DNA from: an uncultured Bacteroidaceae bacterium
Lineage (GTDB): Bacteria; Bacteroidota; Bacteroidia; Bacteroidales; SM23-62
Length of the DNA stretch: 64,000 bases
Assembly (NCBI GenBank): GCA_964406005.1
Contig: CAYOPZ010000006.1
Coordinates: 7,408-71,407, forward strand
Direction: 5' to 3'
Under the pieces are notes generated by a model. It was given only the letters and a program-made list of their open reading frames with translations. It had not been told where the DNA came from and did no database searches. The position numbers and the translations under genes are program-made. Within the stretch, counting starts at the first letter, position 1. Each line of letters opens with the position of its first letter. Positions 8,780 through 40,628 of the stretch are shown piece by piece.

Positions 8780-8788
8780 TACCCGGCA

Positions 8789-24063: not shown

Positions 24064-26457
24064 TTGATGTCTGTTTTCAAGAATCATATTAAATTTCCTT
24101 TGATCCTTAATATATTTTTACTATTACCTGTGTTAGGATATTCTCAGGGTATCATAATTTCCGGGAAAGTCATTGAGAAACAGAGCAGTGAACCACTGAT
24201 GGGTGCTACGGTTACCCTGCGGAGCCAGGTGGATTCTGTATTGATAGCTGGAACTGTGACGGACACTGCCGGGATGTTTGAATTCAGATCAATTACACGA
24301 GGTAATTATTTGCTGGAAATCAGTTTTATTGGTTTCTATCCTCGTGAAAGGAATCTCAATATATCTTCAGAAAATATAAGACTGGACAGTCTGTTGCTCG
24401 AACCTTCCGAGATCCTGCTGGGTGAGGTGACCGTCATGGCCCGGAAACCCACTCTTGTGAATGAGCTCGATAAAAAGGTATACAATGTGGAGGAGGACAT
24501 CCTTGCAGAATCGGGATCGGTGAGTGAGATTCTCCAGCACATACCTTCTGTTTCGGTTGATATTGATGGGAATATCACCTTGAGAAACAGCGGGAATATC
24601 ACATTTCTTATCAATGGCAGGCCTTCAGCGATGCTTCGCAGGGATGCAGCGTCGGTACTGCAACAGATGCCGGCAAACAGTATTGAGCACATCGAGATCA
24701 TCACCAACCCTTCAGCAAGATATCGCCCGGATGGAGTCGGCGGCATCATTAACATCGTAATGAAAAAAGAAACAAGGGAAGGATTGACCGGACAGGTTGC
24801 AGCCAATGCAGGATCGGAAAAAAGATACAATGCGCATTTGAACCTTAATTATGGTACCGGGGGTCTGAAACTCTTTGGAAATTATGGGCTCAGGCATAAC
24901 TCCGGGACACGGCTTTTTACGGATGAAAGGTTGTACTATGATCCTGAAGATGGAAATATCAGCAGTGATTACCACGAAACTGGGAGCTCCTCTTCAGATG
25001 GTTTTGCACATAACCTGTTTGCCGGGGGCAGTTATGAGTTTAATGACTTCAACGCCCTTGAACTTACGGGTTCTTTATTTCTTCAGAATACATATCACGA
25101 AAGTGTATCCGAAATTGCGGCCAGAGATTCTGCAGGGAATCCTGCATACAATTTCACTGACCTTTCCACGAATGACGAATTCGAGCAGGAGGGTGAAATG
25201 AGCCTTGCTTTCGAACACAAATTCAGGGACAACGAGGACCATACGCTTTCATTTGAAGCCGCATACTCCGGATATGACGAAAGTGAGGACCAGGTGTATG
25301 AAGAAAAGTATACATATCCCGATGACCGTACGGAAATCACTGGAAACCTTGTTGAAAAAAGCGGCAACCAGCAGGAGATCCTCCTTGATCATGCCCTGCC
25401 TTTTGGTGAGGACGGAGAATTTGAAAGTGGATATGCTGGTGAGTTTGTGCAGGAAGATATACGATATACCGGCGAGGCTTCCACCAGCCGTTTCCAGTTA
25501 AACCAACAGGTACATGCTCTATACGCACTGGCAGGAATGCAGATTGGAGATTTCTCATTTAAGGCTGGAGCAAGGGCCGAACAGGCATTCACCAATTCCA
25601 GGCTCAAATTTCCGGTAGATTCACTGACACAGAATAAATATTTCAAAATCTACCCGACACTCCATCTGGGATATAAACTGATTGAAAATCATGAACTTTC
25701 TCTCAGCTATTCAAAAAGAATCAACCGTCCGGATTCAGATGAACTGAATCCCTACCCCGAATATTCCGATCCCCGGAATGCAGAAGCCGGTAATCCGAAC
25801 CTGAAACCTGAACAAATCCATTCCATTGAACTGGGTTACCAATGGAGTCATCCTGTGGCTGAGATCACGAGCACCCTTTATTATCGTTACGAGTACGATG
25901 CTTTCACCACTATCTATAGTACAATCAGTGACAGTGTGGTACTGAGGACCATCTCCAACCTGAATACACAAAAATCTTTAGGCTACGAGATCGTTTTTGC
26001 AGGTTATTTTGTTAAAAACTGGGAGATGAACCTGACCGGGGATGTTTTCCATACAACACTTGACGCCACTGATCTTGGATACAGCTCAAATAAATCGACA
26101 GTATCCGGGAATATTAAATTATATTCTCAACTAAATCTCTGGAAAAATACTTTCTTTCAGTTAAACGGCTTTTACTATTTTCCAACAATTACGCCCCAGG
26201 GGAAAAGGGAATCATATTATTACATTAACGCGGGAATCAAACAGCAGCTATTCGGGAACAGGGCATCACTGATCCTTACTGCCTCCGATATTTTTCATAC
26301 TTACAGGATCAGGTACAGAATCGAATCAAATGAGCTGGACAGGTTCACAACCAGCAAGAGAAAATACCCTGTAATATACCTCGGTTTCGTCTGGAGATTC
26401 AACAATTATAGGGATCAGCAAAATCTTGAATATGAGGGAGAGGGACTTGTGTATTGA
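24064..26457 (+). CDS. TonB-dependent receptor-like outer membrane beta-barrel protein
   Basis: CarboxypepD_reg-like N-terminus (IISGKVIEKQSSEPLMGATVTL), a plug-like region, and a 797-aa beta-rich sequence. TTG at 24064 or ATG at 24067. Confidence 0.8.
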   Translation: MMSVFKNHIKFPLILNIFLLLPVLGYSQGIIISGKVIEKQSSEPLMGATVTLRSQVDSVLIAGTVTDTAGMFEFRSITRGNYLLEISFIGFYPRERNLNISSENIRLDSLLLEPSEILLGEVTVMARKPTLVNELDKKVYNVEEDILAESGSVSEILQHIPSVSVDIDGNITLRNSGNITFLINGRPSAMLRRDAASVLQQMPANSIEHIEIITNPSARYRPDGVGGIINIVMKKETREGLTGQVAANAGSEKRYNAHLNLNYGTGGLKLFGNYGLRHNSGTRLFTDERLYYDPEDGNISSDYHETGSSSSDGFAHNLFAGGSYEFNDFNALELTGSLFLQNTYHESVSEIAARDSAGNPAYNFTDLSTNDEFEQEGEMSLAFEHKFRDNEDHTLSFEAAYSGYDESEDQVYEEKYTYPDDRTEITGNLVEKSGNQQEILLDHALPFGEDGEFESGYAGEFVQEDIRYTGEASTSRFQLNQQVHALYALAGMQIGDFSFKAGARAEQAFTNSRLKFPVDSLTQNKYFKIYPTLHLGYKLIENHELSLSYSKRINRPDSDELNPYPEYSDPRNAEAGNPNLKPEQIHSIELGYQWSHPVAEITSTLYYRYEYDAFTTIYSTISDSVVLRTISNLNTQKSLGYEIVFAGYFVKNWEMNLTGDVFHTTLDATDLGYSSNKSTVSGNIKLYSQLNLWKNTFFQLNGFYYFPTITPQGKRESYYYINAGIKQQLFGNRASLILTASDIFHTYRIRYRIESNELDRFTTSKRKYPVIYLGFVWRFNNYRDQQNLEYEGEGLVY

Positions 26458-26588
26458 TTAAATGCATATTCCACTTACAGATATTTCATTTTTATAATAT
26501 TTGAGAAATAAATTAAACTAAATAAGTTAAATTCTATTTATTGATTCTCTTAACGTATTGTATGTGTGCTATTTATGGAAATGCTACA

Positions 26589-26621
26589 AGTTTCACTATT
26601 TTCAAAAGTGAAACTATTTTT
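26589..26621 (+). terminator. hairpin between convergent genes
   Basis: agtttcact (26589-26597) pairs with agtgaaact (26607-26615) and is followed by attttta. It sits between the receptor gene end and the end of the defence operon. Confidence 0.5.
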
Positions 26622-26624
26622 ACA

Positions 26625-27065
26625 TCAATTATTCGAAATCATCCCCTTACCAGGTAAACTAGCTCCCTCGTTAAACTTAGACTTTAAAATTCTACCATAT
26701 GAAAGTCTAACACGCACTTTCTTATAAACCATTTCCTTTTCTTTTGCTATTTCTGAGGTCTTAATCCAAGTTTCATAAATATCTGAAGGGCTAATTTTTT
26801 TTGGCAGAGGAGCCTTTTCGTTTATTATTGAAACATTCTTGCCTTGATCCTCAATCCAAACATGGGTAATTGTGAAATCCTTTTTATCAGATCGATTTAT
26901 GATCTTAATAAAATAACAATGTTCATTTGGTCCAAGCAGAACTGCATCGTGTACTAGTACTAATGGGCGCCTTAATTGACTAATAATCCAATAAATCATT
27001 GATACTGCTAAGGCAGAAAATACAGCAGTTGCAATGCTAATTAATGTAACGATATACCATTTCAT
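26625..27065 (-). CDS. small membrane-anchored hypothetical protein (last gene of the R-M/defence operon)
   Basis: 146 aa with an N-terminal TM helix (IVTLISIATAVFSALAVSMIYWII) followed by a soluble domain of about 110 aa. It starts 43 nt after the hsdR stop, with no intervening hairpin. Confidence 0.6.
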   Translation of the reverse strand: MKWYIVTLISIATAVFSALAVSMIYWIISQLRRPLVLVHDAVLLGPNEHCYFIKIINRSDKKDFTITHVWIEDQGKNVSIINEKAPLPKKISPSDIYETWIKTSEIAKEKEMVYKKVRVRLSYGRILKSKFNEGASLPGKGMISNN

Positions 27066-27108
27066 TACATCTCTATTTTTTTGCCGTAATAAATGAATTT
27101 CTTAAACA

Positions 27109-30100
27109 TTAAGTTCCTTGATACCTCTTAAAATTCTCCGCCTGCTCAAATATCTCCTTATACACTTCATCCCGATCCACCGGTGGATAATCATGTTCAG
27201 CTAGCAGGATGATCAGATCAACTTTCAATTCGGCCTTTATATCCTCCCGTTTTGACCAGTCAGTATATTTGGCTTTATCATCGACTACATTCTTTACCGC
27301 CTGGGCAAGGACCAGTAATTTATTTTCAGGATATTCAAAATCATACTTTATAGCCAGCGATTGAAGGATGTCGTAAAAAGCTTTTTCCTCAAAATCGATT
27401 CCAAGGTCCTGGAAGGATTCCTTTTCTTTCTTCAGTGCATGATAAAGGTCAATAATCTCATCTGTAAAGTCTTCCAGGACTTCGCTCCTGAGAACATCTG
27501 ATTCTTTCCTTTCGTTATACTTATCCACTAAGGATTTCATCCTTTTAGAAAAGTCAATCCCTTTCATTCGGTTGACTTTCTTGTAATCCTCGATAGCTTT
27601 GAGTAAAAGTTGCTGCAGGAGCTTGATCTTGGTATTGGGTAATTTTATCTTTTCGATTTTTGCCAGGTAATCTTCTGAGAAAATGTCAACTTCAGTGTTT
27701 TTATCGTCTCCCAGCTTAAATATCTCTTCTACGCCATCAGAGGAAAGTGCATCCTTGATCATCTCCCTGACCTTAGCATTCATCTGGGCAGTATCGGGGG
27801 CTGAACCTTTAGTCAATTTGAACACAATGGAGCGGACAGCAATATAAAAATGGATGTAGTCTTTTTCTATCTGGGATAGCTTTCCACTTCCGGCGCAGAT
27901 ATCATATGCTGCTTTTAGCCGTTTGACCAGGAACATGAATCGCTTCTCCAGGTCATTGGTGACCTGAACAAATTCAGCAGCCTGATTTAGGGTATGAAGT
28001 TGTTTCAATGGTGATCCATGGAAGTAGGGTGAACTATCAAACTTGTGGAAGATCTTAGCCAGCAGATCCAGGTGATCTTTGACCACCACAACGGATTGAT
28101 CGACATCTTCAAAATTCTGACTATCTGTTTTATTGTAATGGGCGAGAGCCAGGTTCATCTGTTTCTTAATACCTATATAATCAACCACCAAACCTTTTTC
28201 TTTCTCCTCGAATTTCCTGTTTACCCTTGAGATGGTCTGTATCAGATTATGACGCTGAATGGGTTTGTCTATATAGATTGTATCAAGGAAAGGAACATCA
28301 AATCCGGTCAACCACATGTCAACCACAATTGCTATTTTGAAATTGGATTTTTCATTCTTGAATTGTCGGTCAAGCTCTTTCCTGTATTCCTTTGTACCTA
28401 ACAAATTATACAATTCCTCCGGATCGTCTTTTCCCCTGGTCATGACCATTTTAATCTTTTCCATGGGTTTGATCTCTCGCTTGTCTTTTTCGGATAATTC
28501 AACTTTAGGGTCGGCAACCATAGACTTATTCCACACAGGTCTGAGAGCTATTACATTTTTATAAAACTCCCATGCTATCGGACGATTACTGCATACCACC
28601 ATTGCCTTCCCCCGGATGGTTGAACCTTCTGAAACCCTTGCTTCATAATGTTGAACAAAGTCATTAGCAACAGCCTTTAGTCGATCCGGATCACCAAGGA
28701 TCACATTCATATTGGTAACTGCTTTCTTGCTCTCTTCAATTTGATATTCATTGGATCCTTCTTCTGCACACTCGTTATAATATACCTCAATTCGCGCCAA
28801 CTCGCTGTTGTTAAGGATTACCTTTGCTGCCCTGCCTTCATAAACAATCCTCACAGTAATCTCATCATGCACGGACTCGGTCATAGTATAGCTATCAACC
28901 ACAGGACCAAATACATCGAGTGTGGCATCTATGGGTGTGCCAGTAAATCCCACATAGGTGGCATTAGGTAGTGAATCATGCAGGTATTTGGCAAATCCAT
29001 AACTTCTCATCACCCCATTTGCTGTCACCCTGACTTTCTGTTCCAGGTTTACCTGGCTTCTGTGTGCCTCGTCTGAAATACAAATTATATTTGTCCTCTC
29101 AGATAAAAGTTCAGTATCCTCTGTGAATTTGTGAATGGTGGTCAGAAATACCCCACCGCTTTGAATTCCCTGTAAACGTTCACGAAGTTCAGTACGACTT
29201 TCAACACTTATAATGTTGTTATCCCCGACAAAGCTTTTCGCATTAGTAAATTGTCCAGATAGTTGGTCATCAAGATCATTCCGGTCGGTGATTAAAATTA
29301 TGGTTGGACTGGACAGTAATTTGCTACGCATCAAAAGCCGGGTGAGAAAAAGCATCGTGAAACTCTTGCCGCTTCCTGTTGCCCCAAAATAGGTGCCTCC
29401 TTTTCCATCACCATCCGGTCTTTTATGTTTGAGGATATTCTCAAACAGCATCTTTGCACCGTAATACTGCGGATAGCGGCAAAGGATCTTCTCATCTCGT
29501 TTTGATGCATCTGGGAGGTATATGAAATTCCTGATGATGTCCCTGAGCCGGTTTTTGTTGAACATGCCCTGAATCAGGCTGTACATGGAATCAATTCCGT
29601 CAACTTCTGTTTCGTTCCCTTCAATTTTACGCCATGCATAAAAGAATTCATAGGGTGCAAAAAACGATCCTGTTTTATTATTGACACCATCGGAAATAAT
29701 GCAAAAAGCATTGTATTTAAACAATTCCGGAATATCTCTTCGATACCTGGTGGTCAGTTGAACATAGGCATCATGAATGGTAGCATTCTCCCGTATGGCT
29801 GACTTAAACTCAAAAACTACCAATGGAAGTCCGTTAATGAATAATATACCATCCGGAATTCGCTTTTCGTACCCAGTAATTTCAAACTGATTGACAAACT
29901 TATAGATGTTCTTGTCATGAGTATAATCCGGACTTTGGCCTTCTGCTGCTATCTGTTCCAAGCCCTCCGGATCCGGATCCCGGAATACGGTTAATCCACT
30001 ATAATCTATTAACTGGATATACAGGTCTTTCTGTGTCCTGTCTTCCCGTTTTAATATGAATCCGCCAGAAACCATCTTCATGATAGTCTTATTGGATTCA

Positions 30101-30327
30101 TACAGGTCTAGTGAAGCATATCCTTTTAATTGACGGATAATCTGGCTTGCTTCATTCTTCGTCAGATTTTCACTCTGATACCGGTTCAGAAGATATTCAA
30201 ACAGGTCATTCTCGATCAGAACATCATCAGTACTACGGACAATCTCAACACCCGGAACATAAGTGTAACCCTGTTGCTCCATCAATCCGATGAATGCTTG
30301 TTCTAATTTGTCTTCTGTGAAACTCAT
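27109..30327 (-). CDS. hsdR: type I restriction enzyme R subunit
   Basis: Helicase motif I GATGSGKSFTM, DEAH box ISDEAHRSQ, and motif VI-like QTISRVNR. The N-terminal MSFTEDKLEQAFIGLMEQQGY is typical of HsdR. The ATG at 30325-30327 is preferred over the track start at 30393, which would translate a repeat array. Confidence 0.9.
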   Translation of the reverse strand: MSFTEDKLEQAFIGLMEQQGYTYVPGVEIVRSTDDVLIENDLFEYLLNRYQSENLTKNEASQIIRQLKGYASLDLYESNKTIMKMVSGGFILKREDRTQKDLYIQLIDYSGLTVFRDPDPEGLEQIAAEGQSPDYTHDKNIYKFVNQFEITGYEKRIPDGILFINGLPLVVFEFKSAIRENATIHDAYVQLTTRYRRDIPELFKYNAFCIISDGVNNKTGSFFAPYEFFYAWRKIEGNETEVDGIDSMYSLIQGMFNKNRLRDIIRNFIYLPDASKRDEKILCRYPQYYGAKMLFENILKHKRPDGDGKGGTYFGATGSGKSFTMLFLTRLLMRSKLLSSPTIILITDRNDLDDQLSGQFTNAKSFVGDNNIISVESRTELRERLQGIQSGGVFLTTIHKFTEDTELLSERTNIICISDEAHRSQVNLEQKVRVTANGVMRSYGFAKYLHDSLPNATYVGFTGTPIDATLDVFGPVVDSYTMTESVHDEITVRIVYEGRAAKVILNNSELARIEVYYNECAEEGSNEYQIEESKKAVTNMNVILGDPDRLKAVANDFVQHYEARVSEGSTIRGKAMVVCSNRPIAWEFYKNVIALRPVWNKSMVADPKVELSEKDKREIKPMEKIKMVMTRGKDDPEELYNLLGTKEYRKELDRQFKNEKSNFKIAIVVDMWLTGFDVPFLDTIYIDKPIQRHNLIQTISRVNRKFEEKEKGLVVDYIGIKKQMNLALAHYNKTDSQNFEDVDQSVVVVKDHLDLLAKIFHKFDSSPYFHGSPLKQLHTLNQAAEFVQVTNDLEKRFMFLVKRLKAAYDICAGSGKLSQIEKDYIHFYIAVRSIVFKLTKGSAPDTAQMNAKVREMIKDALSSDGVEEIFKLGDDKNTEVDIFSEDYLAKIEKIKLPNTKIKLLQQLLLKAIEDYKKVNRMKGIDFSKRMKSLVDKYNERKESDVLRSEVLEDFTDEIIDLYHALKKEKESFQDLGIDFEEKAFYDILQSLAIKYDFEYPENKLLVLAQAVKNVVDDKAKYTDWSKREDIKAELKVDLIILLAEHDYPPVDRDEVYKEIFEQAENFKRYQGT

Positions 30328-30351
30328 TTTCTTTTTGTCATTCGATTTTTT

Positions 30352-30448
30352 AACATAGACAGTGTGTCTATGTTCTTGTCTATGTTGCTCCATAAGGACA
30401 GATTAATCCTCTAAACATAGACAAGCAGTCTATCTATGTGACTATGTT
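30352..30448. promoter_or_regulatory. array of AACATAGAC/GTCTATGTT palindromes (candidate operator) upstream of hsdR
   Basis: IR1 is aacatagac-agtgt-gtctatgtt (30352-30374), followed by an extra gtctatgtt (30378-30386). IR2 is aacatagac-aagca-gtctatcta (30414-30436), followed by gactatgtt (30440-30448). The two units are 62 bp apart. Confidence 0.6.
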
Positions 30449-31938
30449 GTCATATATCTGAGTTTTGGGGATTTTGGATTCTCGCCGTTTGTTTTAATCA
30501 ATTTCAGTTTCAACATTTTGGCTAGGTGTCTGCTGGTTGTTCTGGTTGTAATACCAAACTGTTCAGTATATTCTTTAGCAGAAATTTCCTCATGACTTTT
30601 TATCCATTCATAACCAGCAAGTTCATCATTGCTTAGCTGGCTCAAGGCTTTGTCACCAACCTCCTTAATTGCCTCAATGGTTCTCGGAAATACTACAATT
30701 ACATTAAGTCCATCATAGTCTATAATGGGCAGAGGCAGGTTGTATTTCTCCCTGATGGATTTAAAAGTTTCCATTCCCAATGCCGCTTCCTCCATATAGT
30801 TCATTTCATTGAAAATAAATGTAAGCTTCTTGTTTCGACTATATGAAGTGGCTGTAAAGTTTTTCATAGATTCAATTGTAATAGGAAAAACAGGCTCACC
30901 AGGACTTCTTACCTCAATTCTGTCATTGAATACATCCAACTGTACTTTAGCACCGTCTTTGGCATAATCCCGGTGGGCAATGGCATTGATTACAGCTTCT
31001 CTGATAACCTCAATCGGAAAGGAGGGGACTTGTTTTGCTTTGAATTGCTTTCGGTCAATACTTGCAGGAAGCACTTTATTTAACCAATCTTCAACCTTGT
31101 CTGGGATTAAAACCAACGCATCATCAAAAGTTACAGTACCCGTTTTCCCGTCATAATATTGGACTTTTGCCTTTAGAGCAGCCTGGGGGAATTTATTCCT
31201 TGGATTTTTACCAAAGAGAAGAATGGCATTTCCGGTTGGCAGATATGTTTTAGTCTTTGCATTATACTCCAACAAATCCATTTCTTTGAGCTCCTGTAGA
31301 AATTCTTCGGATTTCGGGGTATAATTTCTTCCGGATTCTGTAATAAATTTCTGAAGGGCTTGCTCTGATAAACTACCCATATTGGTGGCTGTTGCACGTT
31401 CATCCAGATAGTCAGAGGCTTTTTTCTTTGCTTTAGCTTCAAGATTTTTCAAGTTTGCCCATTTCATGAACTCTTTGTTTACATCTTCAATCTCCTTATG
31501 AAATTCCCGGGAAAACTGGTGCACCTTCACTCCGTTTTCAATAAGGTGATCTATTCCGCCATGGTCAACAGTGGGATTTTTATCTTCAATACCAAACCAT
31601 ACATCTGAAATTCTTGCATTGGCAATGCGCTCTGCACAGCTTATTTTAGGCGCATTCCTTGCGCCAGGAGCGCAAGGTTCAAGGGTAGCGAAAAGCCAAC
31701 AATCAGAAAGTTCCTTGTGACGGTTTTTTTTATCAAGCAATGTATATTCAGCATGATCGCCTTCACGTAATTCCCCCCTATAAGCTGTTTCAAATGTTCC
31801 GTCCGGAAATACTAGTACTGCCCCAACATAAGGGCTTGGATCTTTTTTCTTCCGTTCATGAATAGATTTTTTCATGACCTCAATGGCCAGTTTCATGTAC
31901 TCCTTTGGATCTTTCCTTGCGTCCGTTTTTTTTGCCAT
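30442..31938 (-). CDS. fusion protein: CMP/dCMP(RibD)-type zinc deaminase domain + HATPase_c_4-like ATP-binding domain + C-terminal winged HTH
   Basis: Deaminase zinc motifs are H62-A-E64 and P88-C89...C101 (LEPCAPGARNAPKISC). The middle has LPTGNAILLFGKNP and EVIREAVINAIAHRDY...IEVRSPG, as in AlbA_2/HATPase_c_4 'RecG-like' regulators. The C-terminal ISAKEYTEQFGITTRTTSRHLAKMLKLKLI is HTH-like. Confidence 0.7.
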   Translation of the reverse strand: MAKKTDARKDPKEYMKLAIEVMKKSIHERKKKDPSPYVGAVLVFPDGTFETAYRGELREGDHAEYTLLDKKNRHKELSDCWLFATLEPCAPGARNAPKISCAERIANARISDVWFGIEDKNPTVDHGGIDHLIENGVKVHQFSREFHKEIEDVNKEFMKWANLKNLEAKAKKKASDYLDERATATNMGSLSEQALQKFITESGRNYTPKSEEFLQELKEMDLLEYNAKTKTYLPTGNAILLFGKNPRNKFPQAALKAKVQYYDGKTGTVTFDDALVLIPDKVEDWLNKVLPASIDRKQFKAKQVPSFPIEVIREAVINAIAHRDYAKDGAKVQLDVFNDRIEVRSPGEPVFPITIESMKNFTATSYSRNKKLTFIFNEMNYMEEAALGMETFKSIREKYNLPLPIIDYDGLNVIVVFPRTIEAIKEVGDKALSQLSNDELAGYEWIKSHEEISAKEYTEQFGITTRTTSRHLAKMLKLKLIKTNGENPKSPKLRYMTT

Positions 31939-31954
31939 ACTTTACAAGTGAGAT

Positions 31955-33991
31955 TTAATCTGATTTTTCCTGCCACTCATCAGCAATTTTTTTCCAATCT
32001 ACATTCCTTTTAACCTGTTTTCCTTTTTTATCCTTTCCTTGCCAAACATCCCAAAAATCTGGGTCATCGGATTGTGGTCTATTTTCAACCTTTAGAAAAT
32101 TCATATGAACTAAAAGAGGTAACTCTGATGCCCAACCTAAAAGAATTGCTTTTCGTGATGGTAATGATGGCAATTCCCTCAGCATTCCTCTTAGATTGTC
32201 AGGAATTAGTTTGCTTACCAATTCCTGATCTCGATCATTACTTATTCGATGTAGTATAAAACTATTACATTGAGATAAAACAGTTGGAGATAGCTCAGAT
32301 GGTCTTTGAGAAGATAAAACCAGTCCTAATCCAAATTTTCTTCCTTCCCGTGAAATCTTTTCAAATACCTGGCTACAAATTGTACTTGCATAATTATCTG
32401 AATCTTCTTTGTATCTTTTAATAAAGGTATGTGCCTCCTCCATTACTAGAGTTGTGGGCAACGAATTACCCTCTAATTTCCTATATCTTTGAAGGGCTTC
32501 AAAAATCATCCTTGCAATAACTGAAGTTATTATATGTATAATTTCAGAAGGAACTAAAGAAAGGTCTATAATTGTAATACACCCCCGTGGATCATTGTTC
32601 TTACCGATATAGTCTCCTAACCATTTTTCCAATGTTATTTCAACCTCATCACCAATAATAGAAGTCATTCTTGTATCAGCGAGCAATGTTCTAATACGTG
32701 CCAATAGAAATTCAACGTATTGTTCATTTCCTGTTTCTTGGGCTAATGCATCTAACAGATTTAAAAATACCTCTCCTTTAAATGGAATAGGGATATCTTC
32801 GTTTTTTGGAAGTATGGATTTCTCTGATCCACCAAATGCTTTGTAAGTAGTTGTCATTACTGTTGAGATGCCCTCTATCTCTTGAGCGTCTGATTCATAG
32901 GTTGGATATTGTCCTGATCTTTGATTTTCATATACTTGGATTGATTGAATTAATTCGTTTAGTCTATCATCAGAGATTCTTGATCGATAGTATTCTAAGC
33001 TTTCTTTCCATTTGACTAACTTTAATAGGAAATTCTTTGGCCTTGGAAAAGATCCCCAAGGAGAACCAGTACTGCTTTCATGGTTCAAACTTGTTAGAAT
33101 AGTGCCCAAGAATCGTTTGATCTCAATTTCTAAATCACTTTCTTGTTCAAATACTTCATTACGCATTGCTCTGAGTGTTCTCTTTATAAGTGGCACCTGA
33201 GCCTTTGCACTAGCTTGAGCGAAGGATGTCCATTCCATACTATTCCAGAACCATATTGGAACCTCTAATGGATTATCCTCAGAATTTACTTTAAAAACAC
33301 GACCGTTAGTCCCAAAAACCCTTGAATATTCTCCATTTGGGTCCAGTATAATAAACCTGGCATTAGGATTTTTACCATCTAGTTTTACAGCTTCAAGAGA
33401 CCACTGTATAAGACCCGCAACAGTACAAGATTTACCACTTCCAGTATTTCCCAATACTGCCAAATGTCTTCCAAATAATCTGTCAGGATCAATCATTACA
33501 TCAGCATTGGCAGCTAATGGGCTAGTTCCAATTTTTACCCTCCTATTTTCTCCGGATTCTATAACAGCTCTTAATTGCTTATCAGTTGGGATAAGAACTG
33601 GTTCTCCCACGCTAGGGAAGCTTTGAATACCACGAATGAACTCATAGTGATCATCATCTCCCAGAGCTAGGATTCCTAAAGGACTAACTTTCATCTTCCT
33701 CAGGGGGAATGGTAAATCAATAAGTCCATAATCCTGGAAGCCTTTTCTTTTGGGAAAAGGAGATCGTTCTATCGAAATCCATTCCACTTGTCCCACTATA
33801 TAGCCAGCCTCAGTAGTAACTAAAACATAACTATTAATTTTGGGGAAAGATCTTGGAATTCCTGCATTTGCTGCTACTCCATCTGGAGCGTCTAGATCTA
33901 AAGTAACCTTAATTTCACTGGGTGAAACATATTCAACTACTCCAATTCTTAGAGCAGAACTTTGTTCAATAGGACTAAGACTCATCGTCAT
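31955..33991 (-). CDS. herA: HerA-like (DUF87) hexameric ATPase/helicase
   Basis: N-terminal barrel-like region. Walker A LGNTGSGKS. Walker B TLVMEEAH. 678 aa. Overlaps the SIR2 gene stop. Confidence 0.8.
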   Translation of the reverse strand: MTMSLSPIEQSSALRIGVVEYVSPSEIKVTLDLDAPDGVAANAGIPRSFPKINSYVLVTTEAGYIVGQVEWISIERSPFPKRKGFQDYGLIDLPFPLRKMKVSPLGILALGDDDHYEFIRGIQSFPSVGEPVLIPTDKQLRAVIESGENRRVKIGTSPLAANADVMIDPDRLFGRHLAVLGNTGSGKSCTVAGLIQWSLEAVKLDGKNPNARFIILDPNGEYSRVFGTNGRVFKVNSEDNPLEVPIWFWNSMEWTSFAQASAKAQVPLIKRTLRAMRNEVFEQESDLEIEIKRFLGTILTSLNHESSTGSPWGSFPRPKNFLLKLVKWKESLEYYRSRISDDRLNELIQSIQVYENQRSGQYPTYESDAQEIEGISTVMTTTYKAFGGSEKSILPKNEDIPIPFKGEVFLNLLDALAQETGNEQYVEFLLARIRTLLADTRMTSIIGDEVEITLEKWLGDYIGKNNDPRGCITIIDLSLVPSEIIHIITSVIARMIFEALQRYRKLEGNSLPTTLVMEEAHTFIKRYKEDSDNYASTICSQVFEKISREGRKFGLGLVLSSQRPSELSPTVLSQCNSFILHRISNDRDQELVSKLIPDNLRGMLRELPSLPSRKAILLGWASELPLLVHMNFLKVENRPQSDDPDFWDVWQGKDKKGKQVKRNVDWKKIADEWQEKSD

Positions 33992-35297
33992 CCTCCTTTC
34001 CTTCTTTACTAATATGGAATCCTCTTGCTTTGAGCAGTTCAGCCATCCTGAATGTTGCCTTATCTATGGCAGGTTTTGGCAAATAATTATCAACAAGGGA
34101 TTCCAAATTGCCAAAATGGTTTCCGATTAACAATGAAATCTGAACTGGTCTTTTGGCATTATCATAGAATAGTTTTATTCTATCTCCAGGATCATTGTAG
34201 GCAATAATCACGAGATGCGTTGACGGAATTGTAAGCATATCAGCAACTACCCGGTTGATATGCTCATCACCAAACCCATATCCGTATGTTACTATAGTAG
34301 AATTAGGCCTGCAAATTGCACTGGCAAAATCTCTAAATAACTCAACATATGGGTATTCAGCGGTTTCTCTATCCTTAGCTGAATTGGGATAAATCATTAA
34401 TTGATCAGCCTCCTCAATATATGTGGCTATATTTTCAGCGCCATATGGTAACGAATTTCTTTTTACATGACCCCTAGAAGAAGTCCAATCCAAGGATCCA
34501 TGAAGTTTTGTAAAGTTTACTACTCCTTCCAGATACCGGGGTTCTCCTCTAATTCCAGGTGGATTATAATGTAAATCTATTCCTAACCTCGATGAACGGA
34601 ATATTGGACATATTGTCCCAATAAATCGGTCTATTAAATGAAGGCCTGCCAATTCTGCTCCGAATTCAACAATTCTATCATAATTTGTTGTAAAGAAATT
34701 TAACCTTTCTCGAGTTGCTGATCTGCTGGCAAAGCTTAATAGGAAACTCATCAGATACTCAGCAGCTTTGGGATCCATAGCACCCACAATATTCTTTTCA
34801 GAAAATAAGATGGTGTTTGCAAATTCTGTAATACCTGATTCAAGTTCTAGCTTCAATCTATTGAGCTCTTTCCTTATTTTCTTTGAGCCATAAACATCAG
34901 TAGAAATATAAACCTCAAGTCCTTTTATTAATTCATTTATAGTCCTGATTTGGTCCTCAATATTTGGTTCCCCTCTTCCAGTTTTTTTTGCTGAAGTTTC
35001 AGACATTCTTTCAACCTGATCTTTGAATACAGTTAATTCAAATCCTCCCATATCAGCTCCTGTCTTTCCAGTAGCAAGAAGATGAACTGCTGAAGGCAGT
35101 CCTGATCCAGCTAACACAGAAAGATGTTCACTTTGGAAAAGTGCAGTTAACCAGGGTTCAATTTTAGAACGATATTCTTTTGGATCTGGACCATCACTCA
35201 ATATCTCAGGAGCCTTATTATCAGATATTTTTAATACATGCTCATTATTCCAGCTTGTCTTTGTTGATGTTACCATTTTATTTGTTATTTGATTCAT
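33975..35297 (-). CDS. SIR2-like (SIR2_2) NADase-type defence protein
   Basis: Motifs LAGSGLPS, FFTTNYDRIVE and KLHGSLDW match the SIR2_2 family pattern. It lies directly upstream of a HerA-like gene with overlapping stop/start. The start could be 35297 or the ATG at 35274-35276. Confidence 0.75.
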   Translation of the reverse strand: MNQITNKMVTSTKTSWNNEHVLKISDNKAPEILSDGPDPKEYRSKIEPWLTALFQSEHLSVLAGSGLPSAVHLLATGKTGADMGGFELTVFKDQVERMSETSAKKTGRGEPNIEDQIRTINELIKGLEVYISTDVYGSKKIRKELNRLKLELESGITEFANTILFSEKNIVGAMDPKAAEYLMSFLLSFASRSATRERLNFFTTNYDRIVEFGAELAGLHLIDRFIGTICPIFRSSRLGIDLHYNPPGIRGEPRYLEGVVNFTKLHGSLDWTSSRGHVKRNSLPYGAENIATYIEEADQLMIYPNSAKDRETAEYPYVELFRDFASAICRPNSTIVTYGYGFGDEHINRVVADMLTIPSTHLVIIAYNDPGDRIKLFYDNAKRPVQISLLIGNHFGNLESLVDNYLPKPAIDKATFRMAELLKARGFHISKEGKEDDDES

Positions 35298-36576
35298 GAA
35301 CCAGTTCTGATATTACTATCTTCCCACTAACCAGGCGAGGTATAAGAGCATCGCGAATTTCAGCAAGGTGTTTATTTTCAAGGCTTATATTATGAATCTT
35401 GCCTAAATATTCATTTACAATCTGTGAGTACTTTTCAATTATCAAATTTTCTGGATTTATTACCTGAATCTTTTGAACCATTTTAGGTTGAGCTCTTTGT
35501 CTACTGCCAGTAGTCCCAGTGACAGTTGAAAGAAGCTCAGATTGGAAATAATCTGATTTAAAAAAGAAGTAAAAGAATGGTCGGATATTAGCACGTTTTG
35601 GTACAAATTGCATAAATTCAGTTGAGCATATTGAAGATGCTTCATCGACTACATTAGGATACCAAACTCTTTGTGTTTCAGGATTGAGCTTCGATACCAA
35701 AATAGCATCTTTGTTAACCTGATATTTATTACTTTTTATATCACTTCCTTTTTCAGCGATCGCAGTTTCACCATCATCAAAAGCTGGAATCGAAAAATGC
35801 ATCCACATTTTTTCTGGGGATAGCATCGGTTTTATTGAAGTAGTATCGAGTCTACACATTGAAGAAATAGAAGATACTCGCCATTCCTTCGGCACCCAAT
35901 TCTCTAGATCCCTGCTATATTCAAACTCATTCGGAAACAACACCTTAATGTTTTCCGGTAAAGGCTTCCGTTCATCACCCAATTCTGATCTTTGCTTAGC
36001 TCTCTTTTGCATCGGTTCCGGAATATCATTTCCAGCAGCAAGGGCATTGTCAATTACAGGATCAAAATCTACAAACCAGCTTCTATAAAGAGCCTGAGCC
36101 ATTTGTCCCAGGGTATGGCTCATTTGGCGATTGAGTTCGATTTTGTCATCAAGGGAACCAATGATATCCACAATGGCTTTTTGTTCGTCAATGGGAGGAA
36201 CATTTAATTCAATTCCGTAAATAAAGTTTCGATTTAAAGACTGTTGGGCACTACCTGAATTATATAAGGAAAAATCAATCGTTTTTAACAGTAGATACGT
36301 GAAATAAGGTTCATTATTTTTAAAATCAGTGACATATAGAACAGTATTTAATGGCCAATAATTTTCTTTAATATAATTTGTAACCCCCATTGAACCGCCA
36401 CTCCTGCCAATTGTAACTCCAGGACCATTTACTTTTGCCACATTATGAAAACCTGTTATACCAAATGATCCCATGACTGGAATATTTCCGTCTTCTCTAA
36501 TTGAAGTAGGCAAATCATGTCCTCTCTGTATAGATATGAAATCTTTAAGAGTTATTTTATTCCAATCATTTACCAT
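35278..36576 (-). CDS. hsdS: type I restriction-modification specificity subunit
   Basis: Central conserved helix region VPPIDEQKAIVDIIGSLDDKIELN and C-terminal LAEIRDALIPRLVSGKI. The ATG at 36574-36576 overlaps the hsdM stop within ATGGTAAATGA. Confidence 0.85.
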   Translation of the reverse strand: MVNDWNKITLKDFISIQRGHDLPTSIREDGNIPVMGSFGITGFHNVAKVNGPGVTIGRSGGSMGVTNYIKENYWPLNTVLYVTDFKNNEPYFTYLLLKTIDFSLYNSGSAQQSLNRNFIYGIELNVPPIDEQKAIVDIIGSLDDKIELNRQMSHTLGQMAQALYRSWFVDFDPVIDNALAAGNDIPEPMQKRAKQRSELGDERKPLPENIKVLFPNEFEYSRDLENWVPKEWRVSSISSMCRLDTTSIKPMLSPEKMWMHFSIPAFDDGETAIAEKGSDIKSNKYQVNKDAILVSKLNPETQRVWYPNVVDEASSICSTEFMQFVPKRANIRPFFYFFFKSDYFQSELLSTVTGTTGSRQRAQPKMVQKIQVINPENLIIEKYSQIVNEYLGKIHNISLENKHLAEIRDALIPRLVSGKIVISELVHESNNK

Positions 36577-38116
36577 AACCAAGAAATTCAAGGTTTTGCA
36601 ATATTTTCGCATCTAATTTATTTGCTTCATCTAATTGCGATCTTAAGGTTTGAGATAGCGATGTCATCTTCTCTTCAAACAATACCCCGTCATCGTCAAT
36701 TTGAGCTGTACCAACATATCGGCCAGGAGTCAATACAAAATCATTCTTCTCAATTTCATCTCTAGTCGCAGATTTAGAAAATCCTGCAATATCTTCATAG
36801 ACTCCATCTTTCTTTTCTCCACGCCATGAATGGTAGGTTTTGCATATTTCTGTTATGTCGGCATCAGTAAGTTCTTTATGAGTCCGGTCAATCATCTGTC
36901 CCATATTCCGGGCATCAATAAACAATGTTTCTCCCTGGCGCTTCTTGAATTCATGTCTACTATCTTCTTTTTTGCTTTTAGCGATGAACCACAGACATAC
37001 TGGGATTGGGGTCGTATAGAATAGCTGTCCAGGAAGTGCAATCATACAATCCACCAGATCGTTCTCGACAAGTTTCTTCCTGATCTCTCCTTCACCCCTG
37101 GTGTTTGAGCTCATGGAGCCGTTGGCCATTACAAACCCGGCTACTCCATTTTCCGATAGCTTGGAAATCATATGTAGGATCCACCCATAGTTTGCATTCC
37201 CGGTAGGCGGTACTTGATACCCATCCCAACGGGGATCACCGGTCAATTCATCATCAGCCCGCCAATCATCCTGGTTAAATGGAGGATTTGCCATTATAAA
37301 ATCAGCTTTCAGGTCAGGATGCTGATCCTTAAAGAAGGTATCTGCTGGCACTTCTCCCAGGTTTCCGGAAATACCCCTGATAGCCAAATTCATTTTGGCC
37401 AACTTATAAGTAGTGGCTGTGTTCTCCTGTCCGTAAATGCTAATATCCTTTGTATTCCCATTGTGGCTTTCCACGAACTTGATGGACTGAACAAACATGC
37501 CGCCTGATCCGCAACAGGGATCATAGATCTTACCCTTGAATGGTTCCAGCATTTCGGCAATCAGGTTCACCACACATTTGGGGGTATAAAATTCACCTCC
37601 GCCTTTTCCCTCCGCAGCAGCAAATCGTCCCAGGAAATATTCATATACCCGTCCTACAATATCCTCTTGCTTATCGGCTATTGTATCTATGTTATTTATC
37701 GTATCCAGTAATGCTGCCAGCTTGCTTGGATCAAGTCCAAGCCTGGAAAAATAATTATCCGGCAGGGCTCCTTTCAGGGCTTGATTATTCTTTTCAACCG
37801 TATGAAGAGCAGTATCTATTTTAAGTGCGAGATCGCCCTGTTTGGCGTTTGCCATTATATAACTCCACCGGGATATTTCTGGCAGGAAGAAGACATTCTT
37901 CATGGTGTAGAATTCCGTCATTTCCAAAAACTTCTCCTTGCCCTCAGTGATAATCTCCTGTCGCCGCGCCTCAAATTTATCGCTGGCAAACTTCAGGAAG
38001 ATCAATCCCAGTACCACATGTTTGTATTCTGAACTCTCCACTGTACCACGGAGCTTTATCGCCGAGTTCCACAGCGCTTCTTCCATCGAGTTCCCGTTCC
38101 CATTCCTTTTCGCCAT
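36566..38116 (-). CDS. hsdM: type I restriction-modification N6-adenine DNA methyltransferase subunit
   Basis: N-terminal HsdM helical domain (LWNSAIKLRG...YKHVVLGLIFLKF), SAM motif DPCCGSGGMF and catalytic NPPF (MANPPFN). Confidence 0.92.
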   Translation of the reverse strand: MAKRNGNGNSMEEALWNSAIKLRGTVESSEYKHVVLGLIFLKFASDKFEARRQEIITEGKEKFLEMTEFYTMKNVFFLPEISRWSYIMANAKQGDLALKIDTALHTVEKNNQALKGALPDNYFSRLGLDPSKLAALLDTINNIDTIADKQEDIVGRVYEYFLGRFAAAEGKGGGEFYTPKCVVNLIAEMLEPFKGKIYDPCCGSGGMFVQSIKFVESHNGNTKDISIYGQENTATTYKLAKMNLAIRGISGNLGEVPADTFFKDQHPDLKADFIMANPPFNQDDWRADDELTGDPRWDGYQVPPTGNANYGWILHMISKLSENGVAGFVMANGSMSSNTRGEGEIRKKLVENDLVDCMIALPGQLFYTTPIPVCLWFIAKSKKEDSRHEFKKRQGETLFIDARNMGQMIDRTHKELTDADITEICKTYHSWRGEKKDGVYEDIAGFSKSATRDEIEKNDFVLTPGRYVGTAQIDDDGVLFEEKMTSLSQTLRSQLDEANKLDAKILQNLEFLGYGK

Positions 38117-38117
38117 T

Positions 38118-38321
38118 CTATTCTTTAATTAGTTCATCAATCGTTATTTCCAGTCCTGCTGTAATCTTTATCAGGGTATCCATGCGTGGATTCATGACAA
38201 GTCCAGCTTCAATTTTTGCCAGCGTCGTGTATGGTATGTCTGCCTTCTTGGCCAGAGCATCCTGTGTCATACTCTTCTCCTTCCGCCAGTACTTAATTCG
38301 TTCACCAATGTCAACCTTCAT
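38118..38321 (-). CDS. XRE-family helix-turn-helix protein leading the R-M operon
   Basis: 67 aa. MTQDALAKKADIPYTTLAKIEAG matches the XRE HTH pattern. Its stop lies 1 nt before the hsdM ATG. Confidence 0.8.
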   Translation of the reverse strand: MKVDIGERIKYWRKEKSMTQDALAKKADIPYTTLAKIEAGLVMNPRMDTLIKITAGLEITIDELIKE

Positions 38322-38369
38322 TTTCTTCCTTTTATTGATAGTAATATGACGAATTCAATCCATGCCTAC

Positions 38370-38401
38370 CAAATTTAGAGAAATATCTAAGCCGATGCAA
38401 A
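38370..38401 (-). promoter_or_regulatory. Bacteroidota-type promoter (-33 TTTG / -7 TAAATTTG) for the XRE-hsdM operon
   Basis: On the minus strand, TTTG (38398-38401), a 20-nt spacer and TAAATTTG (38370-38377) match TTTG-N19-21-TAnnTTTG. The site is about 50 nt upstream of the XRE ATG. Confidence 0.55.
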
Positions 38402-38428
38402 TCTTTATTGATCATAGCTTTCCACAAT

Positions 38429-38462
38429 AAAAAAGCCGGGAAGAACCAAATCTCCCCGGCCG
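38429..38462 (-). terminator. rho-independent terminator after the ankyrin/micro-ORF cassette
   Basis: On the minus strand, gccgggga...cccggc forms a stem (38435-38440 with 38455-38460) and is followed by ttttt. Confidence 0.65.
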
Positions 38463-38482
38463 CCATATTCAGCGCTGCTGCG

Positions 38483-38629
38483 CTAAATAATACATTCGTA
38501 CGGAATGTATAACTCCTCCGGAATTACGTCTCCATCGGCGTTAAAAATGTAGCCGTTCCAATCGTAGATTGGAGCATAGAGGTCGTAATATCCTGTAGAG
38601 GGATCAATTGTAACCACACTTGTTTTCAT
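38483..38629 (-). CDS. 48-aa micro-ORF (hypothetical)
   Basis: Hand-translated as MKTSVVTIDPSTGYYDLYAPIYDWNGYIFNADGDVIPEELYIPYECII. It is below the track size cut-off. It starts 6 nt after the ankyrin gene stop and ends before the terminator. Confidence 0.35.
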   Translation of the reverse strand: MKTSVVTIDPSTGYYDLYAPIYDWNGYIFNADGDVIPEELYIPYECII

Positions 38630-38634
38630 AAATT

Positions 38635-39081
38635 CTACCATTGATAAATATGTTTCATCTCATTAACTAAACGTGTTTTAATTTTTCTTGCACTTCGGTG
38701 CAGGTATTGCTGTACCGCGATATCAAACAACCTTCGGAGTTCAGCAAAGGTTAAAAGTGATGGGTTGAACGCATCAAGAAGAGTTTCCAATAGATCTGGG
38801 TATAGCAACGCAGATTCAAGGACTTCATAGGAAACATCTGCCCCCGCTTTAACCAGGCAACTGGCCACTTTCGTGTATCCATTTCTTATCGTACTAGCAA
38901 GGGTAGAGGTGCCAAACAATTGCATTGCATTAATATCAGCGCCTTTTTCCAATGCGGCAACTACGCCAGGATAGAATCCGTGTCTTGTTGAGCTTAGTAG
39001 CATCTCATCAGCAGATAGACAGGATAATGATTCCCAAATCTCCTGCTCAGTTTTTGGTTTTAAAATCTCACATATCTCCAT
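38635..39081 (-). CDS. ankyrin-repeat protein
   Basis: Two recognisable ANK-like units: GFYPGVVAALEKGADINA and GTSTLASTIRNGYTKVASCLVKAGADVS. Confidence 0.5.
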   Translation of the reverse strand: MEICEILKPKTEQEIWESLSCLSADEMLLSSTRHGFYPGVVAALEKGADINAMQLFGTSTLASTIRNGYTKVASCLVKAGADVSYEVLESALLYPDLLETLLDAFNPSLLTFAELRRLFDIAVQQYLHRSARKIKTRLVNEMKHIYQW

Positions 39082-39253
39082 ATTTCAACATTTTTGATTT
39101 TTCGAGAAAACATAACTTCCCCCTTTAATTTTAGTTTTATATGATCATACCCCCCTCCAGGTTGTTGATTCCCAGTAATTTTTTTAAAAAAAGATTCTCC
39201 GTTGATGGGATATTAATATTTTTACCTCATAACAACCAATAATACAGAGACAT

Positions 39254-39841
39254 ATGAGCATCGCTAATACCTCCACCGTTTGCTCCGGAATTGAATGGAA
39301 TTCTCTCCTGGGGCTGCTGGTAAGGCTAAAAAAAGCAAGACGAAAAAGGGAATACTTGCTGATTGGAACAGGTGCCTACTTAGGTCTTAGGGCTTCAGAT
39401 CTACTGAATTTGCGCTGGTCCGATTTTATGGATAAGGATGAGATAACAATCACCGAGAAGAAGACAGGAAAGGTCCGGCAGATTACAATAAATCCTTCCT
39501 TGAAAGACATCTTATCTCTTGTTTCAGCTGACCTGGCAAAGCAAGGGAATTTCAATATAAATACGTACCTGTTTGCTAATCGCAAAGGAGACAAAGTGTC
39601 CATCCAGTATATAAACAGGTTGCTTAAGAAGACTTTTGCTGACTTTGGGATCAGGACACAAAATGCATCCACCCATACCTTAAGAAAGACTTTCGGGAAA
39701 CGGGTGTGGGAGATGGATGGAAAAAGTGAACGTAGCCTTATTTATCTGTCACAGATTTTCAATCACTCCAGCATCGGAATTACCCGGAGGTATATTGGGA
39801 TTGTGCAGGAAGATATCCGGGATATTTACATGAAGTTGTAA
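39254..39841 (+). CDS. short tyrosine recombinase (catalytic domain only)
   Basis: 195 aa. Arg in GLRASDLLNLRW, HTLRKTF (H-x-x-R), and a C-terminal HSSIGITRRYIG that supplies the Tyr. It lacks the N-terminal core-binding/SAM-like domain. Confidence 0.7.
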   Translation: MSIANTSTVCSGIEWNSLLGLLVRLKKARRKREYLLIGTGAYLGLRASDLLNLRWSDFMDKDEITITEKKTGKVRQITINPSLKDILSLVSADLAKQGNFNINTYLFANRKGDKVSIQYINRLLKKTFADFGIRTQNASTHTLRKTFGKRVWEMDGKSERSLIYLSQIFNHSSIGITRRYIGIVQEDIRDIYMKL

Positions 39842-39842
39842 T

Positions 39843-40292: not shown

Positions 40293-40355
40293 TTACACAG
40301 GTAAAAAAAGGCCTGAAGATCACTCGACAGGCCATTCCAACACAATCGAATACGA

Positions 40356-40628
40356 TTACTTTTCAGGCAGTTGTTTCTCAAGTTCTGTGACCTCATTCCT
40401 GGTATCTGTAATCTTTTTGACAACAGAATTGTCAATGGGAAATCCTACATCTTTCATAGCATTTACCATCTTCTCCATCTTTTTAATTTCGCTGTTCTTC
40501 TCCCGGATACGTTTCTTAATATCGGTAATGACACCCTTGTTTACCATGGTGAGGACCCTGGCAATAGTTTCCTTGTCGGGATTACTTTTCACCCATTCAT
40601 CGATTGTTTTAAAGAATTTAATTTCCAT
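40356..40628 (-). CDS. hypothetical protein (coiled-coil)
   Basis: 90-aa ORF in AT-rich DNA, co-oriented with radC and int. No family recognised. Confidence 0.5.
   Translation of the reverse strand: MEIKFFKTIDEWVKSNPDKETIARVLTMVNKGVITDIKKRIREKNSEIKKMEKMVNAMKDVGFPIDNSVVKKITDTRNEVTELEKQLPEK

Follow-up and report, generated by a model that had tools for sequence, protein, structure and literature searches.

A RibD-like zinc deaminase in the place of the Schlafen nuclease: a probable mobile defence module with a matched 3′ repeat array

Proteins that combine a Schlafen domain, a GHKL ATPase and a domain of the helix-turn-helix (HTH) type are among the most abundant families of defence islands, and the demonstration that they are ATP-switched tRNase effectors is very new. 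The subject of the present report is a gene for a protein with this scaffold but a different N-terminal enzyme. The gene lies on the minus strand of a 64,000-nucleotide stretch of contig CAYOPZ010000006.1 (assembly GCA_964406005.1, positions 7,408 to 71,407) from an uncultured Bacteroidaceae bacterium; the whole stretch is referred to as the window, and coordinates are those of the window. The pairing of Schlafen and GHKL domains, termed Schlatpase, occurs in 60,692 prokaryotic proteins, more than 90% of which have a C-terminal HTH (bioRxiv 10.64898/2026.05.29.728809). In Schlafen-Argonaute proteins the N-terminal Schlafen tRNase comprises residues 1-142 and PF13749 is the GHKL ATPase; in RzAgo, where E314 and N318 (own numbering) coordinate Mg-ATP, ATP binding leads to tetramerisation and then to activation of the effector (bioRxiv 10.64898/2026.05.29.728809). 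Among prokaryotic Schlafens, 34% are fused to a "HisKinase" domain and 19% to HisKinase-HTH, and for 69.6% of the genes there is a defence gene at a distance of 10 kb or less (Perez Taboada et al.). Schlafen-HisK-wHTH proteins, in which the HTH is winged (wHTH), have been described as "backup suicidal effectors" embedded in BREX loci and were found in at least 1017 taxa (PMC12839542).

In the window protein the slot of the Schlafen tRNase is filled by a catalytically intact RibD-like zinc deaminase, on an anatomy that is otherwise of the Schlatpase type. A sequence-only reading of this DNA, made by a model without database searches, had proposed that a deaminase replaces the Schlafen module, and the known position of the Schlafen nuclease ahead of the GHKL domain bears this out. 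The open reading frame (ORF) encodes 498 amino acids (aa) plus a stop codon, and all of the residues and segments listed in that reading, which left the strand unstated, are present. The gene and its parts are as follows.

30442..31938, minus strand: deaminase-GHKL-wHTH gene (ORF calling; PF00383 and PF13749; AlphaFold2 pLDDT 88.7)
31444..31938, minus strand: RibD-like zinc deaminase domain, aa 1-165 (Pfam, PDB matches, Foldseek)
30658..31431, minus strand: linker subdomain and PF13749 GHKL ATPase, aa 170-427 (Pfam, match to 3lmm, PADLOC)
30445..30651, minus strand: C-terminal wHTH, aa 430-498, with recognition helix RTTSRHLAKM (AlphaFold2 model, weak ArsR/MarR-type matches)

The deaminase carries the motif residues H62-A-E64 and P88-C89-x11-C101, along with R94, D119 and N121, and is matched by Pfam dCMP_cyt_deam_1 (PF00383) over aa 11-116 (E 5e-11; 42.8 bits against a cutoff of 25). 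Among solved structures, the RibD/RibG deaminases are its best sequence matches (2b3z, E 4.6e-10; profile search, E 1e-10), in agreement with the RibD-like N-terminus that had been read from the sequence. The scaffold segments LLFGKNP (240-246), AINAIAHRDY (316-325) and VRSPG (343-347) follow. Pfam HATPase_c_4 (PF13749), which had been expected at about aa 300-400, was found at aa 329-417 (E 8e-17; 61.5 bits against a cutoff of 26), and this domain carries the E-x3-N motif. The GHKL residues, namely N-box E314 and N318, H322, R323 and S345-P346-G347, are invariant in an alignment of 77 diverse members of the family that are 28-90% identical to the window protein (alignment A2). The correspondence of E314 and N318 to the identically numbered residues of RzAgo is by motif and not by alignment. 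There was no Pfam match to the Schlafen/AlbA_2 nuclease domain PF04326 in the window protein. PADLOC returned four matches only for this protein, to Schlafen/GHKL regions associated with prokaryotic Argonautes and to Csa3, and none of the four was a deaminase-defence system model.

The AlphaFold2 model, built on an alignment that included members 27-46% identical to a distant member of the family (P0247), has a predicted local distance difference test score (pLDDT) of 88.7 and a predicted template modelling score of 0.72, with block means in the deaminase domain mostly of about 85-96. A model built on 43 close homologues alone reached a pLDDT of 61.8 and was not used. The top Foldseek match in the PDB is 3lmm, a structural-genomics AlbA_2/GHKL/HTH protein (E 1e-13), which the GHKL region matches by sequence as well as by fold; the earlier assignment of an AlbA_2/Schlafen-type scaffold with a C-terminal HTH was thus correct. 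RibG/RibD deaminase domains are matched at E of about 7e-10, with a root-mean-square deviation of 2.4 Å over about 153 columns and 29% identity, and weaker matches to dCMP deaminases, TadA and APOBECs appear lower in the list. The wHTH is modelled as three helices with a beta wing, and its profile matches are weak and of the ArsR/MarR type.

Conservation of the active site extends throughout the family. E64, C89 and C101 are invariant in alignment A2 and H62 is at least 90% conserved. The pattern H[ACS]E...PC-x9-13-C is kept in 233 of 240 full-length members, the exceptions having mostly HGE or HTE, and the deaminase is evidently kept active since its motifs are so widely retained. Among the matches listed there are at least 120 clusters (at 90% identity) which are 69-100% identical to the window protein, contain both Pfam domains and are about 500 aa in length (471-512). 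A search seeded with P0247, itself 28% identical to the window protein, added 70-odd members (27-46% identity to the seed) with these two domains and this length, Planctomycetota, Verrucomicrobiota and one Lokiarchaeon being among their sources, and ordinary RibD proteins rank next. An architecture that recurs on this scale is no product of chance. With the deaminase domain alone as the HMMER query, 83 representatives were found at E ≤ 1e-30, and 81 of the best 150 matches carry the GHKL scaffold. The same deaminase clade also occurs fused to AbiTii, to a MazG-like region and to an adenylate/guanylate cyclase domain (P0224, P0235 and P0243), and some members with the scaffold have an additional N-terminal extension of 135-190 aa (P0142, P0169 and P0174). 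The genome loci of the family represent at least 10 phyla at 65-90% identity, a sign of horizontal transfer. The plasmids, phage genomes and 2.9 million viral contigs searched yielded no full-length member.

The relationship to RibD also bears on the likely substrate. In Bacillus subtilis RibG, Lys79 is salt-bridged to the substrate's 5′-phosphate, and Asp101 and Asn103 hold the ribose 2′- and 3′-hydroxyls (PMC8256712). These three residues align with R94, D119 and N121 of the window protein (HMMER alignment). In A2 D119 never varies and conservation of R94 reaches at least 90%, as does that of N121 in an alignment of close homologues (A1); the A2 consensus retains a DPNP motif. Conservation of the phosphate and ribose ligand equivalents favours a free nucleotide bearing ribose-5′-phosphate over a polynucleotide. 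The closest relatives beyond the deaminase-GHKL-wHTH family are genuine RibD proteins. Between its zinc cysteines the window protein has an insert of 11 residues, three more than the 8 of RibD, and this insert lacks the His that is conserved at this place in the RibD clade (Iyer et al. 2011); the family is therefore a distinct RibD-like lineage.

The gene belongs to a minus-strand operon with the order hsdM, hsdS, SIR2, HerA, deaminase-GHKL-wHTH gene, hsdR (Pfam, PADLOC). The other members of the operon are listed below.

36566..38116, minus strand: hsdM (Pfam N6_Mtase, E 2e-109; HsdM_N)
35278..36612, minus strand: hsdS (Pfam Methylase_S)
33975..35297, minus strand: SIR2 of the SIR2-HerA pair (PADLOC SIR2, E 6e-159)
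31955..33991, minus strand: HerA of the SIR2-HerA defence pair, a cargo neighbour and not a partner (PADLOC HerA, E 7e-253)
27109..30327, minus strand: hsdR, type I restriction subunit (Pfam HSDR_N, SWI2_SNF2 and T1RH-like_C; PADLOC REase_I)

The subunits of the type I restriction-modification (R-M) system are also recognised by PADLOC in the window. As the sequence-only reading had stated, the gene starts 16 nt after the end of HerA, on the same strand, and precedes hsdR. The start of hsdR was called at 30393, within a 3′ repeat array described below; alignment with the hsdR of a syntenic locus (L026) makes the ATG at 30327 the likely start, which is 114 nt from the stop codon of the deaminase gene. 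The operon lies in an island that extends from about 26.6 to 42.1 kb of the window and has a tyrosine integrase, RadC and a small recombinase at its boundaries; genes for TonB-dependent receptors flank it on one side and TetR/MMPL genes on the opposite side. The TonB/SusC-type receptors and the Arm-DNA-bind_5 domain of the integrase are indicative of Bacteroidota. At the left end of the island (39210-42106) there are a tyrosine-recombinase-like gene (195 aa), RadC and a complete integrase carrying Arm-DNA-bind_5; the first two have 82.5% nucleotide identity to L026, where they lie beside the type I operon. Minus-strand ORFs of 146 aa (26625-27065) and 148 aa (38635-39081), neither with a family match, flank the operon, and the latter has a counterpart of 35% identity at the same position in L026. 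Between the 148-aa ORF and hsdM there is a strong terminator-like hairpin (38434-38461, minus strand; 11 pairs and then a T-run) which is likely the start boundary of the transcription unit of the operon. A scan for sigma-70 promoters and terminators gave no enrichment and no internal terminator, with Bacteroidota-type promoters lying outside the models of the scan.

Genomic context was compared in about 30 other loci (L-numbered) of about 20 kb each. A tblastn search with the SIR2 and HerA of the window found no adjacent homologue in the loci it covered, and Pfam tables for four more loci gave, in L047 alone, opposite-strand fragments of SIR2_2 (weak) and HerA_C; an adjacent same-strand SIR2-HerA pair was seen only in the window. 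In L026, the closest locus, synteny runs from the integrase through hsdM and resumes 4 nt before the start of the deaminase gene, from where it continues through hsdR; the interval between hsdS and the deaminase gene (7704-9956) holds a PrrC-like AAA_13 gene (PDC-S06) in place of SIR2-HerA. The same interval in L024 (3230-5880) holds a gene for a 261-aa protein without a known function and a QatC-like/DpnII-MboI fusion. This interval (31955-35297 in the window) is a cargo hot-spot in syntenic type I operons, in which the deaminase gene and hsdR are retained as the cargo varies. The deaminase gene is therefore independent of SIR2-HerA. Of the three roles that had been suggested from the sequence, an independent effector is the best supported, and SIR2-HerA is absent from the syntenic loci.

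The contexts include type I R-M in three loci, a type IIG-like (MmeI-family) methyltransferase with an HKD-SNF2 helicase in five, type 1 BREX between pglX and pglZ in one and a position after a type III-like helicase in one; a DUF1156 methyltransferase, a canonical Schlatpase and PDC-M11A were seen as further neighbours. Methylation-based defence operons account for about 40-45% of the loci and any defence-type gene for about 60%, as raw, uncontrolled fractions. Recurrence of the fusion beside R-M, SIR2 or HerA genes had been proposed as a check; it holds for R-M and BREX operons and fails for same-strand SIR2-HerA. The minus strand, the 3′ repeats and the general embedding in R-M and BREX operons had gone unmentioned.

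Several other genes were seen near the family. A DprA/SLOG-like gene of 150-180 aa, with PADLOC similarity to the antitoxin PsyrA (E 4.5e-11), adjoins the deaminase gene in seven loci (L002 2947-3375, L011 11655-12188, L014, L015, L020, L021 and L028 9542-10000). Its product is possibly a partner or antitoxin of the deaminase; the window has none. A conserved two-gene cassette lies just upstream of the deaminase gene in L024 (3230-5880), L025 (2153-4803) and L028 (6889-9542) and encodes the 261-aa protein, for which no family matched, and a fusion of a QatC/QueC-like PP-loop protein with a DpnII-MboI nuclease domain; it occurs in type I and type IIG-like contexts alike. Directly after hsdR in L026 (15071-17341) there are ThiF (E1-like) and Multi_ubiq genes, a ubiquitin-like conjugation module. 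In L012 (6455-8146) a canonical SLFN_AlbA_2 and HATPase_c_4 gene immediately follows the deaminase version.

The second distinctive feature of the locus fills the gap between the stop codon of the deaminase gene and hsdR.

30352..30448, minus strand: 3′ repeat array, two 36-nt units 62 nt apart (sequence inspection, repeat search)

The window array contains six copies, some imperfect, of (A)ACATAGAC(A), arranged within each unit as direct-direct-inverted, and four exact 10-mers lie within 30352-30423. This geometry is shared by 30 of 30 distinct loci with sequence past the stop codon, some copies being degenerate and the pattern being less clear in L044, the most distant locus. Direct copies lie at about +1 to +22 after the stop codon, inverted copies at about +20 to +33 and a second set at about +57 to +94, and the period of the direct copies is mostly 12 nt (range about 11-13). 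The repeated 8-mer varies from locus to locus in step with the recognition-helix class of the wHTH, as listed here.

Helix RT[TA]SRHL: repeat motif ACATAGAC
Helix YK[TK]AQRHL: repeat motif CTTGGACA
Helix RTAERLLKK: repeat motif TTCGCCAA
Helix DKVAQNQL: repeat motif GCATGGAA
Helix KKKAERQL: repeat motif TCGCGACA
Helix DERTAQRQI: repeat motif AATCCCGACA

Within a class the repeats are invariant and the spacers drift. Elsewhere in the loci of about 20 kb the class 8-mer has zero occurrences in all but two loci. In the loci examined it is absent from the 400 nt upstream of the gene, apart from one chance match of the 6-mer used for class D, and there is consequently no sign of classical autoregulation. 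Over aa 1-427, L001 and L028 share 89% identity with the window protein, against 41-42% over the wHTH; for L036 and L002 the two values are 78-79% and 68-69%. Nucleotide homology of the window to L028, L001 and L013 ends at about aa 427. From these breaks in identity, the wHTH and array (30445-30656) are evidently a mosaic 3′ module that is exchanged independently of the body of the protein. Further downstream, L002, L003, L015, L021 and L028 have stacks of arrays belonging to other classes, which look like fossils of earlier swaps. No conserved gene was found downstream of the array among the loci compared, which makes the array a part of the module rather than of any one target. Most simply, the wHTH would bind the 3′ repeats as duplex DNA. 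An integron attC-like array was considered on inspection and rejected, the core-site consensus being absent. Comparable direct-repeat arrays follow the stop codon in 5 of about 20 canonical Schlafen-GHKL-HTH genes inspected; the canonical Schlatpase of L012 has its own 3′ array of TTAAGATAGAAT repeats (3 + 2 copies), and similar arrays follow Schlatpase genes in L060/L062, L076 and L042.

The deaminase-GHKL-wHTH gene is probably an uncharacterised, widely transferred defence module. The explanation preferred here, to which a probability of about one half is given, is that it is a self-contained, horizontally mobile, single-gene backup effector carried inside methylation-based defence operons, consisting of an ATP-switched mononucleotide deaminase and a wHTH that binds the array. 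A role in defence, gating by ATP, a nucleotide substrate and binding of the array are what we infer from the comparisons above. ATP-driven oligomerisation would switch on the deaminase, which would act on a mononucleotide bearing ribose-5′-phosphate and not on a polynucleotide. Corruption or depletion of the nucleotide pool would then stall phage replication, and the module would serve as a backup or abortive layer behind restriction. Binding of the wHTH to its cognate 3′ array probably sets expression of the module or of the downstream gene (hsdR), or parks the protein at the locus.

A number of observations weigh against this explanation. The enrichment of defence genes is moderate and uncontrolled; about one third of the loci have no recognisable defence neighbours, and among 116 neighbours of 16 genome loci housekeeping genes prevail and no Pfam family dominates. 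The proposed substrate depends on three aligned residues at about 29% identity, and the insert APGARNAPKIS between the cysteines is without the His of the RibD clade. Physical linkage alone could give the co-variation of wHTH and array, which are adjacent and move together, and autoregulators seldom have their operator downstream of their own gene. The array may also act as RNA: as transcript, a 123-nt segment of it has a folding energy of -34.2 kcal/mol (z = -5.2), and in 21 of 30 loci the sense strand gives a more stable fold than the antisense strand, a weak bias among loci that are not independent. Finally, HisKinase-type Schlafen fusions gave no protection in the phage panel tested (Perez Taboada et al.).

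Among the rival explanations, it is conceivable, if unlikely, that the protein is primarily a transcription controller of the downstream restriction or effector gene (hsdR, or pglZ-brxL in BREX), comparable to the C-proteins of R-M systems, with the wHTH binding the array just upstream of its target and the deaminase and GHKL domains serving as a nucleotide-sensing input. From the end of the array to the likely hsdR ATG is 24 nt, and in type I and BREX loci the gene is always directly upstream of a restriction or PglZ component. Incompatibility groups based on the C-box exist among R-M controllers, and the specificity classes of the wHTH resemble them. The gene downstream of the array nevertheless varies (CdaA, Rrf2, a secreted protein, a kinase, a PsyrA-like protein or nothing on that strand), and about 240 nt separate the array from hsdR in L026. 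Strong purifying selection on the catalytic residues would moreover be needless for a mere ligand sensor. A regulatory role, as had been suggested from the sequence, is possible in part, given the wHTH and its repeats. Somewhat less credible is an editor of nucleic acid (phage DNA, mRNA or tRNA), which would parallel the Schlafen domain that was replaced or APOBEC-like restriction. Such an activity would suit a deaminase in a tRNase slot that is accompanied by a wHTH of the DNA-binding type and has TadA and APOBECs among its weaker structural matches. Relatives of the window protein also score above the threshold of the Inv-AAD (AID/APOBEC-like) Pfam model, but the window protein itself falls below it (24 against a cutoff of 26.5 bits), the best matches in sequence and fold are all RibD/RibG followed by dCMP deaminases, and the phosphate and ribose ligand equivalents of RibG are conserved.

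Two further possibilities assign the array a silencing function, and both are doubtful. In the one, the wHTH and 3′ array would hold the protein inactive on the DNA of its own locus or on its own 3′ untranslated region (UTR), until host DNA degradation, transcription shut-off or titration during phage attack removed the ligand and released GHKL-driven oligomerisation and, with it, the deaminase. With its RibD ancestry, which involves removal of a 2-amino group derived from guanine, the enzyme would be suited to nucleotides of the guanine type or modified by phage, for example 7-deazaguanine precursors, and a substrate of this kind would fit the recurrent pairing with QatC/QueC-like and PsyrA/SLOG-like genes. 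If true, the same logic would extend to part of the 60,000-member Schlafen-GHKL-HTH family. The other, slightly harder to credit, makes the array a structured 3′ UTR RNA that silences the deaminase until phage-induced transcription shut-off frees the enzyme. The AvcI small RNA counteracts AvcD and ToxI repeats counteract ToxN, so that there is precedent, in AvcID, for a deaminase with an RNA antitoxin; the fold stability and sense bias given above and the location of the repeated units on the same transcript agree with such a role. Against it, array stems have no excess of G.U over A.C mismatches (62 vs 52, no asymmetry), an Rfam 15 scan of 26000-39500 gave no match at the array and one chance match elsewhere, wHTHs of the ArsR/MarR type normally bind duplex DNA, and the direct-direct-inverted layout with its period of mostly 12 nt fits operator half-sites. 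The suggestion that the protein is a third component of the adjacent SIR2-HerA system is refuted by the context comparison and keeps very little probability: the short gap after HerA on the same strand speaks for it, but none of the other loci has a same-strand adjacent pair and unrelated cargo takes its place in syntenic loci. An ordinary riboflavin-biosynthesis RibD, a housekeeping role which had also been considered, can be practically dismissed. Of characterised proteins RibD is the one most closely related to the deaminase domain, but the protein scores 49.4 bits against a cutoff of 156.35 for the NCBIfam equivalog TIGR00326 and 32.9 against 500 for NF008052, it has no Pfam match to the RibD_C reductase (PF01872), its C-terminal part being GHKL and wHTH, and it lacks rib neighbours and has been transferred across phyla.

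The family shows the Schlafen-GHKL-HTH scaffold to be a general effector-delivery chassis that accepts a RibD-type deaminase in exchange for the nuclease. The open-access papers searched contained no description of the fusion or its 3′ array, and with this family a new enzyme lineage would join the short list of deaminase-based defences. The matched pairs of wHTH and 3′ repeat offer a testable handle on the role of the HTH in Schlafen-GHKL-HTH proteins, and the tolerance of R-M and BREX operons for modules of this sort may have its explanation in them. In addition, a RibD-like enzyme that acts on a new nucleotide could interest biochemists and tool builders.

Of the known systems, Schlatpases (see also Nat Microbiol 2026, PMC13056530; COG2865; PDB 3lmm) are the most similar. 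They share with the window protein the E-x3-N N-box of the GHKL domain, the C-terminal wHTH and overall size, as well as residence in R-M/BREX operons and defence islands, horizontal spread and an N-terminal domain in the effector slot; a few canonical members also have direct-repeat arrays right after the stop codon. They differ in that the Schlatpase has an SLFN_AlbA_2 nuclease with the motif Ex4(E/D)xK where the window protein has a RibD-like deaminase, whose predicted chemistry is base deamination and not tRNA cleavage. RibD/RibG is the closest match in sequence and fold and has the HxE motif, the Cys-Cys insert and equivalents of the phosphate and ribose ligands, whereas the window protein has a longer insert, no clade His, no reductase, a score far below the cutoff and a gene context that is of the defence type and mobile. 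The proposed logic, in which a single protein of the CDA (cytidine deaminase) fold acts on the nucleotide pool and stops phage replication, is that of the dCTP deaminase DCD and of AvcD from AvcID. Enzymes of the DCD/AvcD type combine a PCxxC dCMP-deaminase-type domain with an N-terminal P-loop kinase-like domain. The window protein has no kinase domain, spaces its cysteines by 11 residues and has a GHKL ATPase and wHTH as its regulator. With the anticodon nucleases PrrC and RloC, which are cargo of the gap between hsdS and hsdR, it shares operon position and the logic of a backup effector, but it belongs to another enzyme class, nothing points to its masking by the R-M complex, and its gene is also found outside type I operons. 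The C-proteins of R-M systems, lastly, are small and have upstream operators, in contrast to a protein of 498 aa whose motif occurs in the 3′ flank alone.

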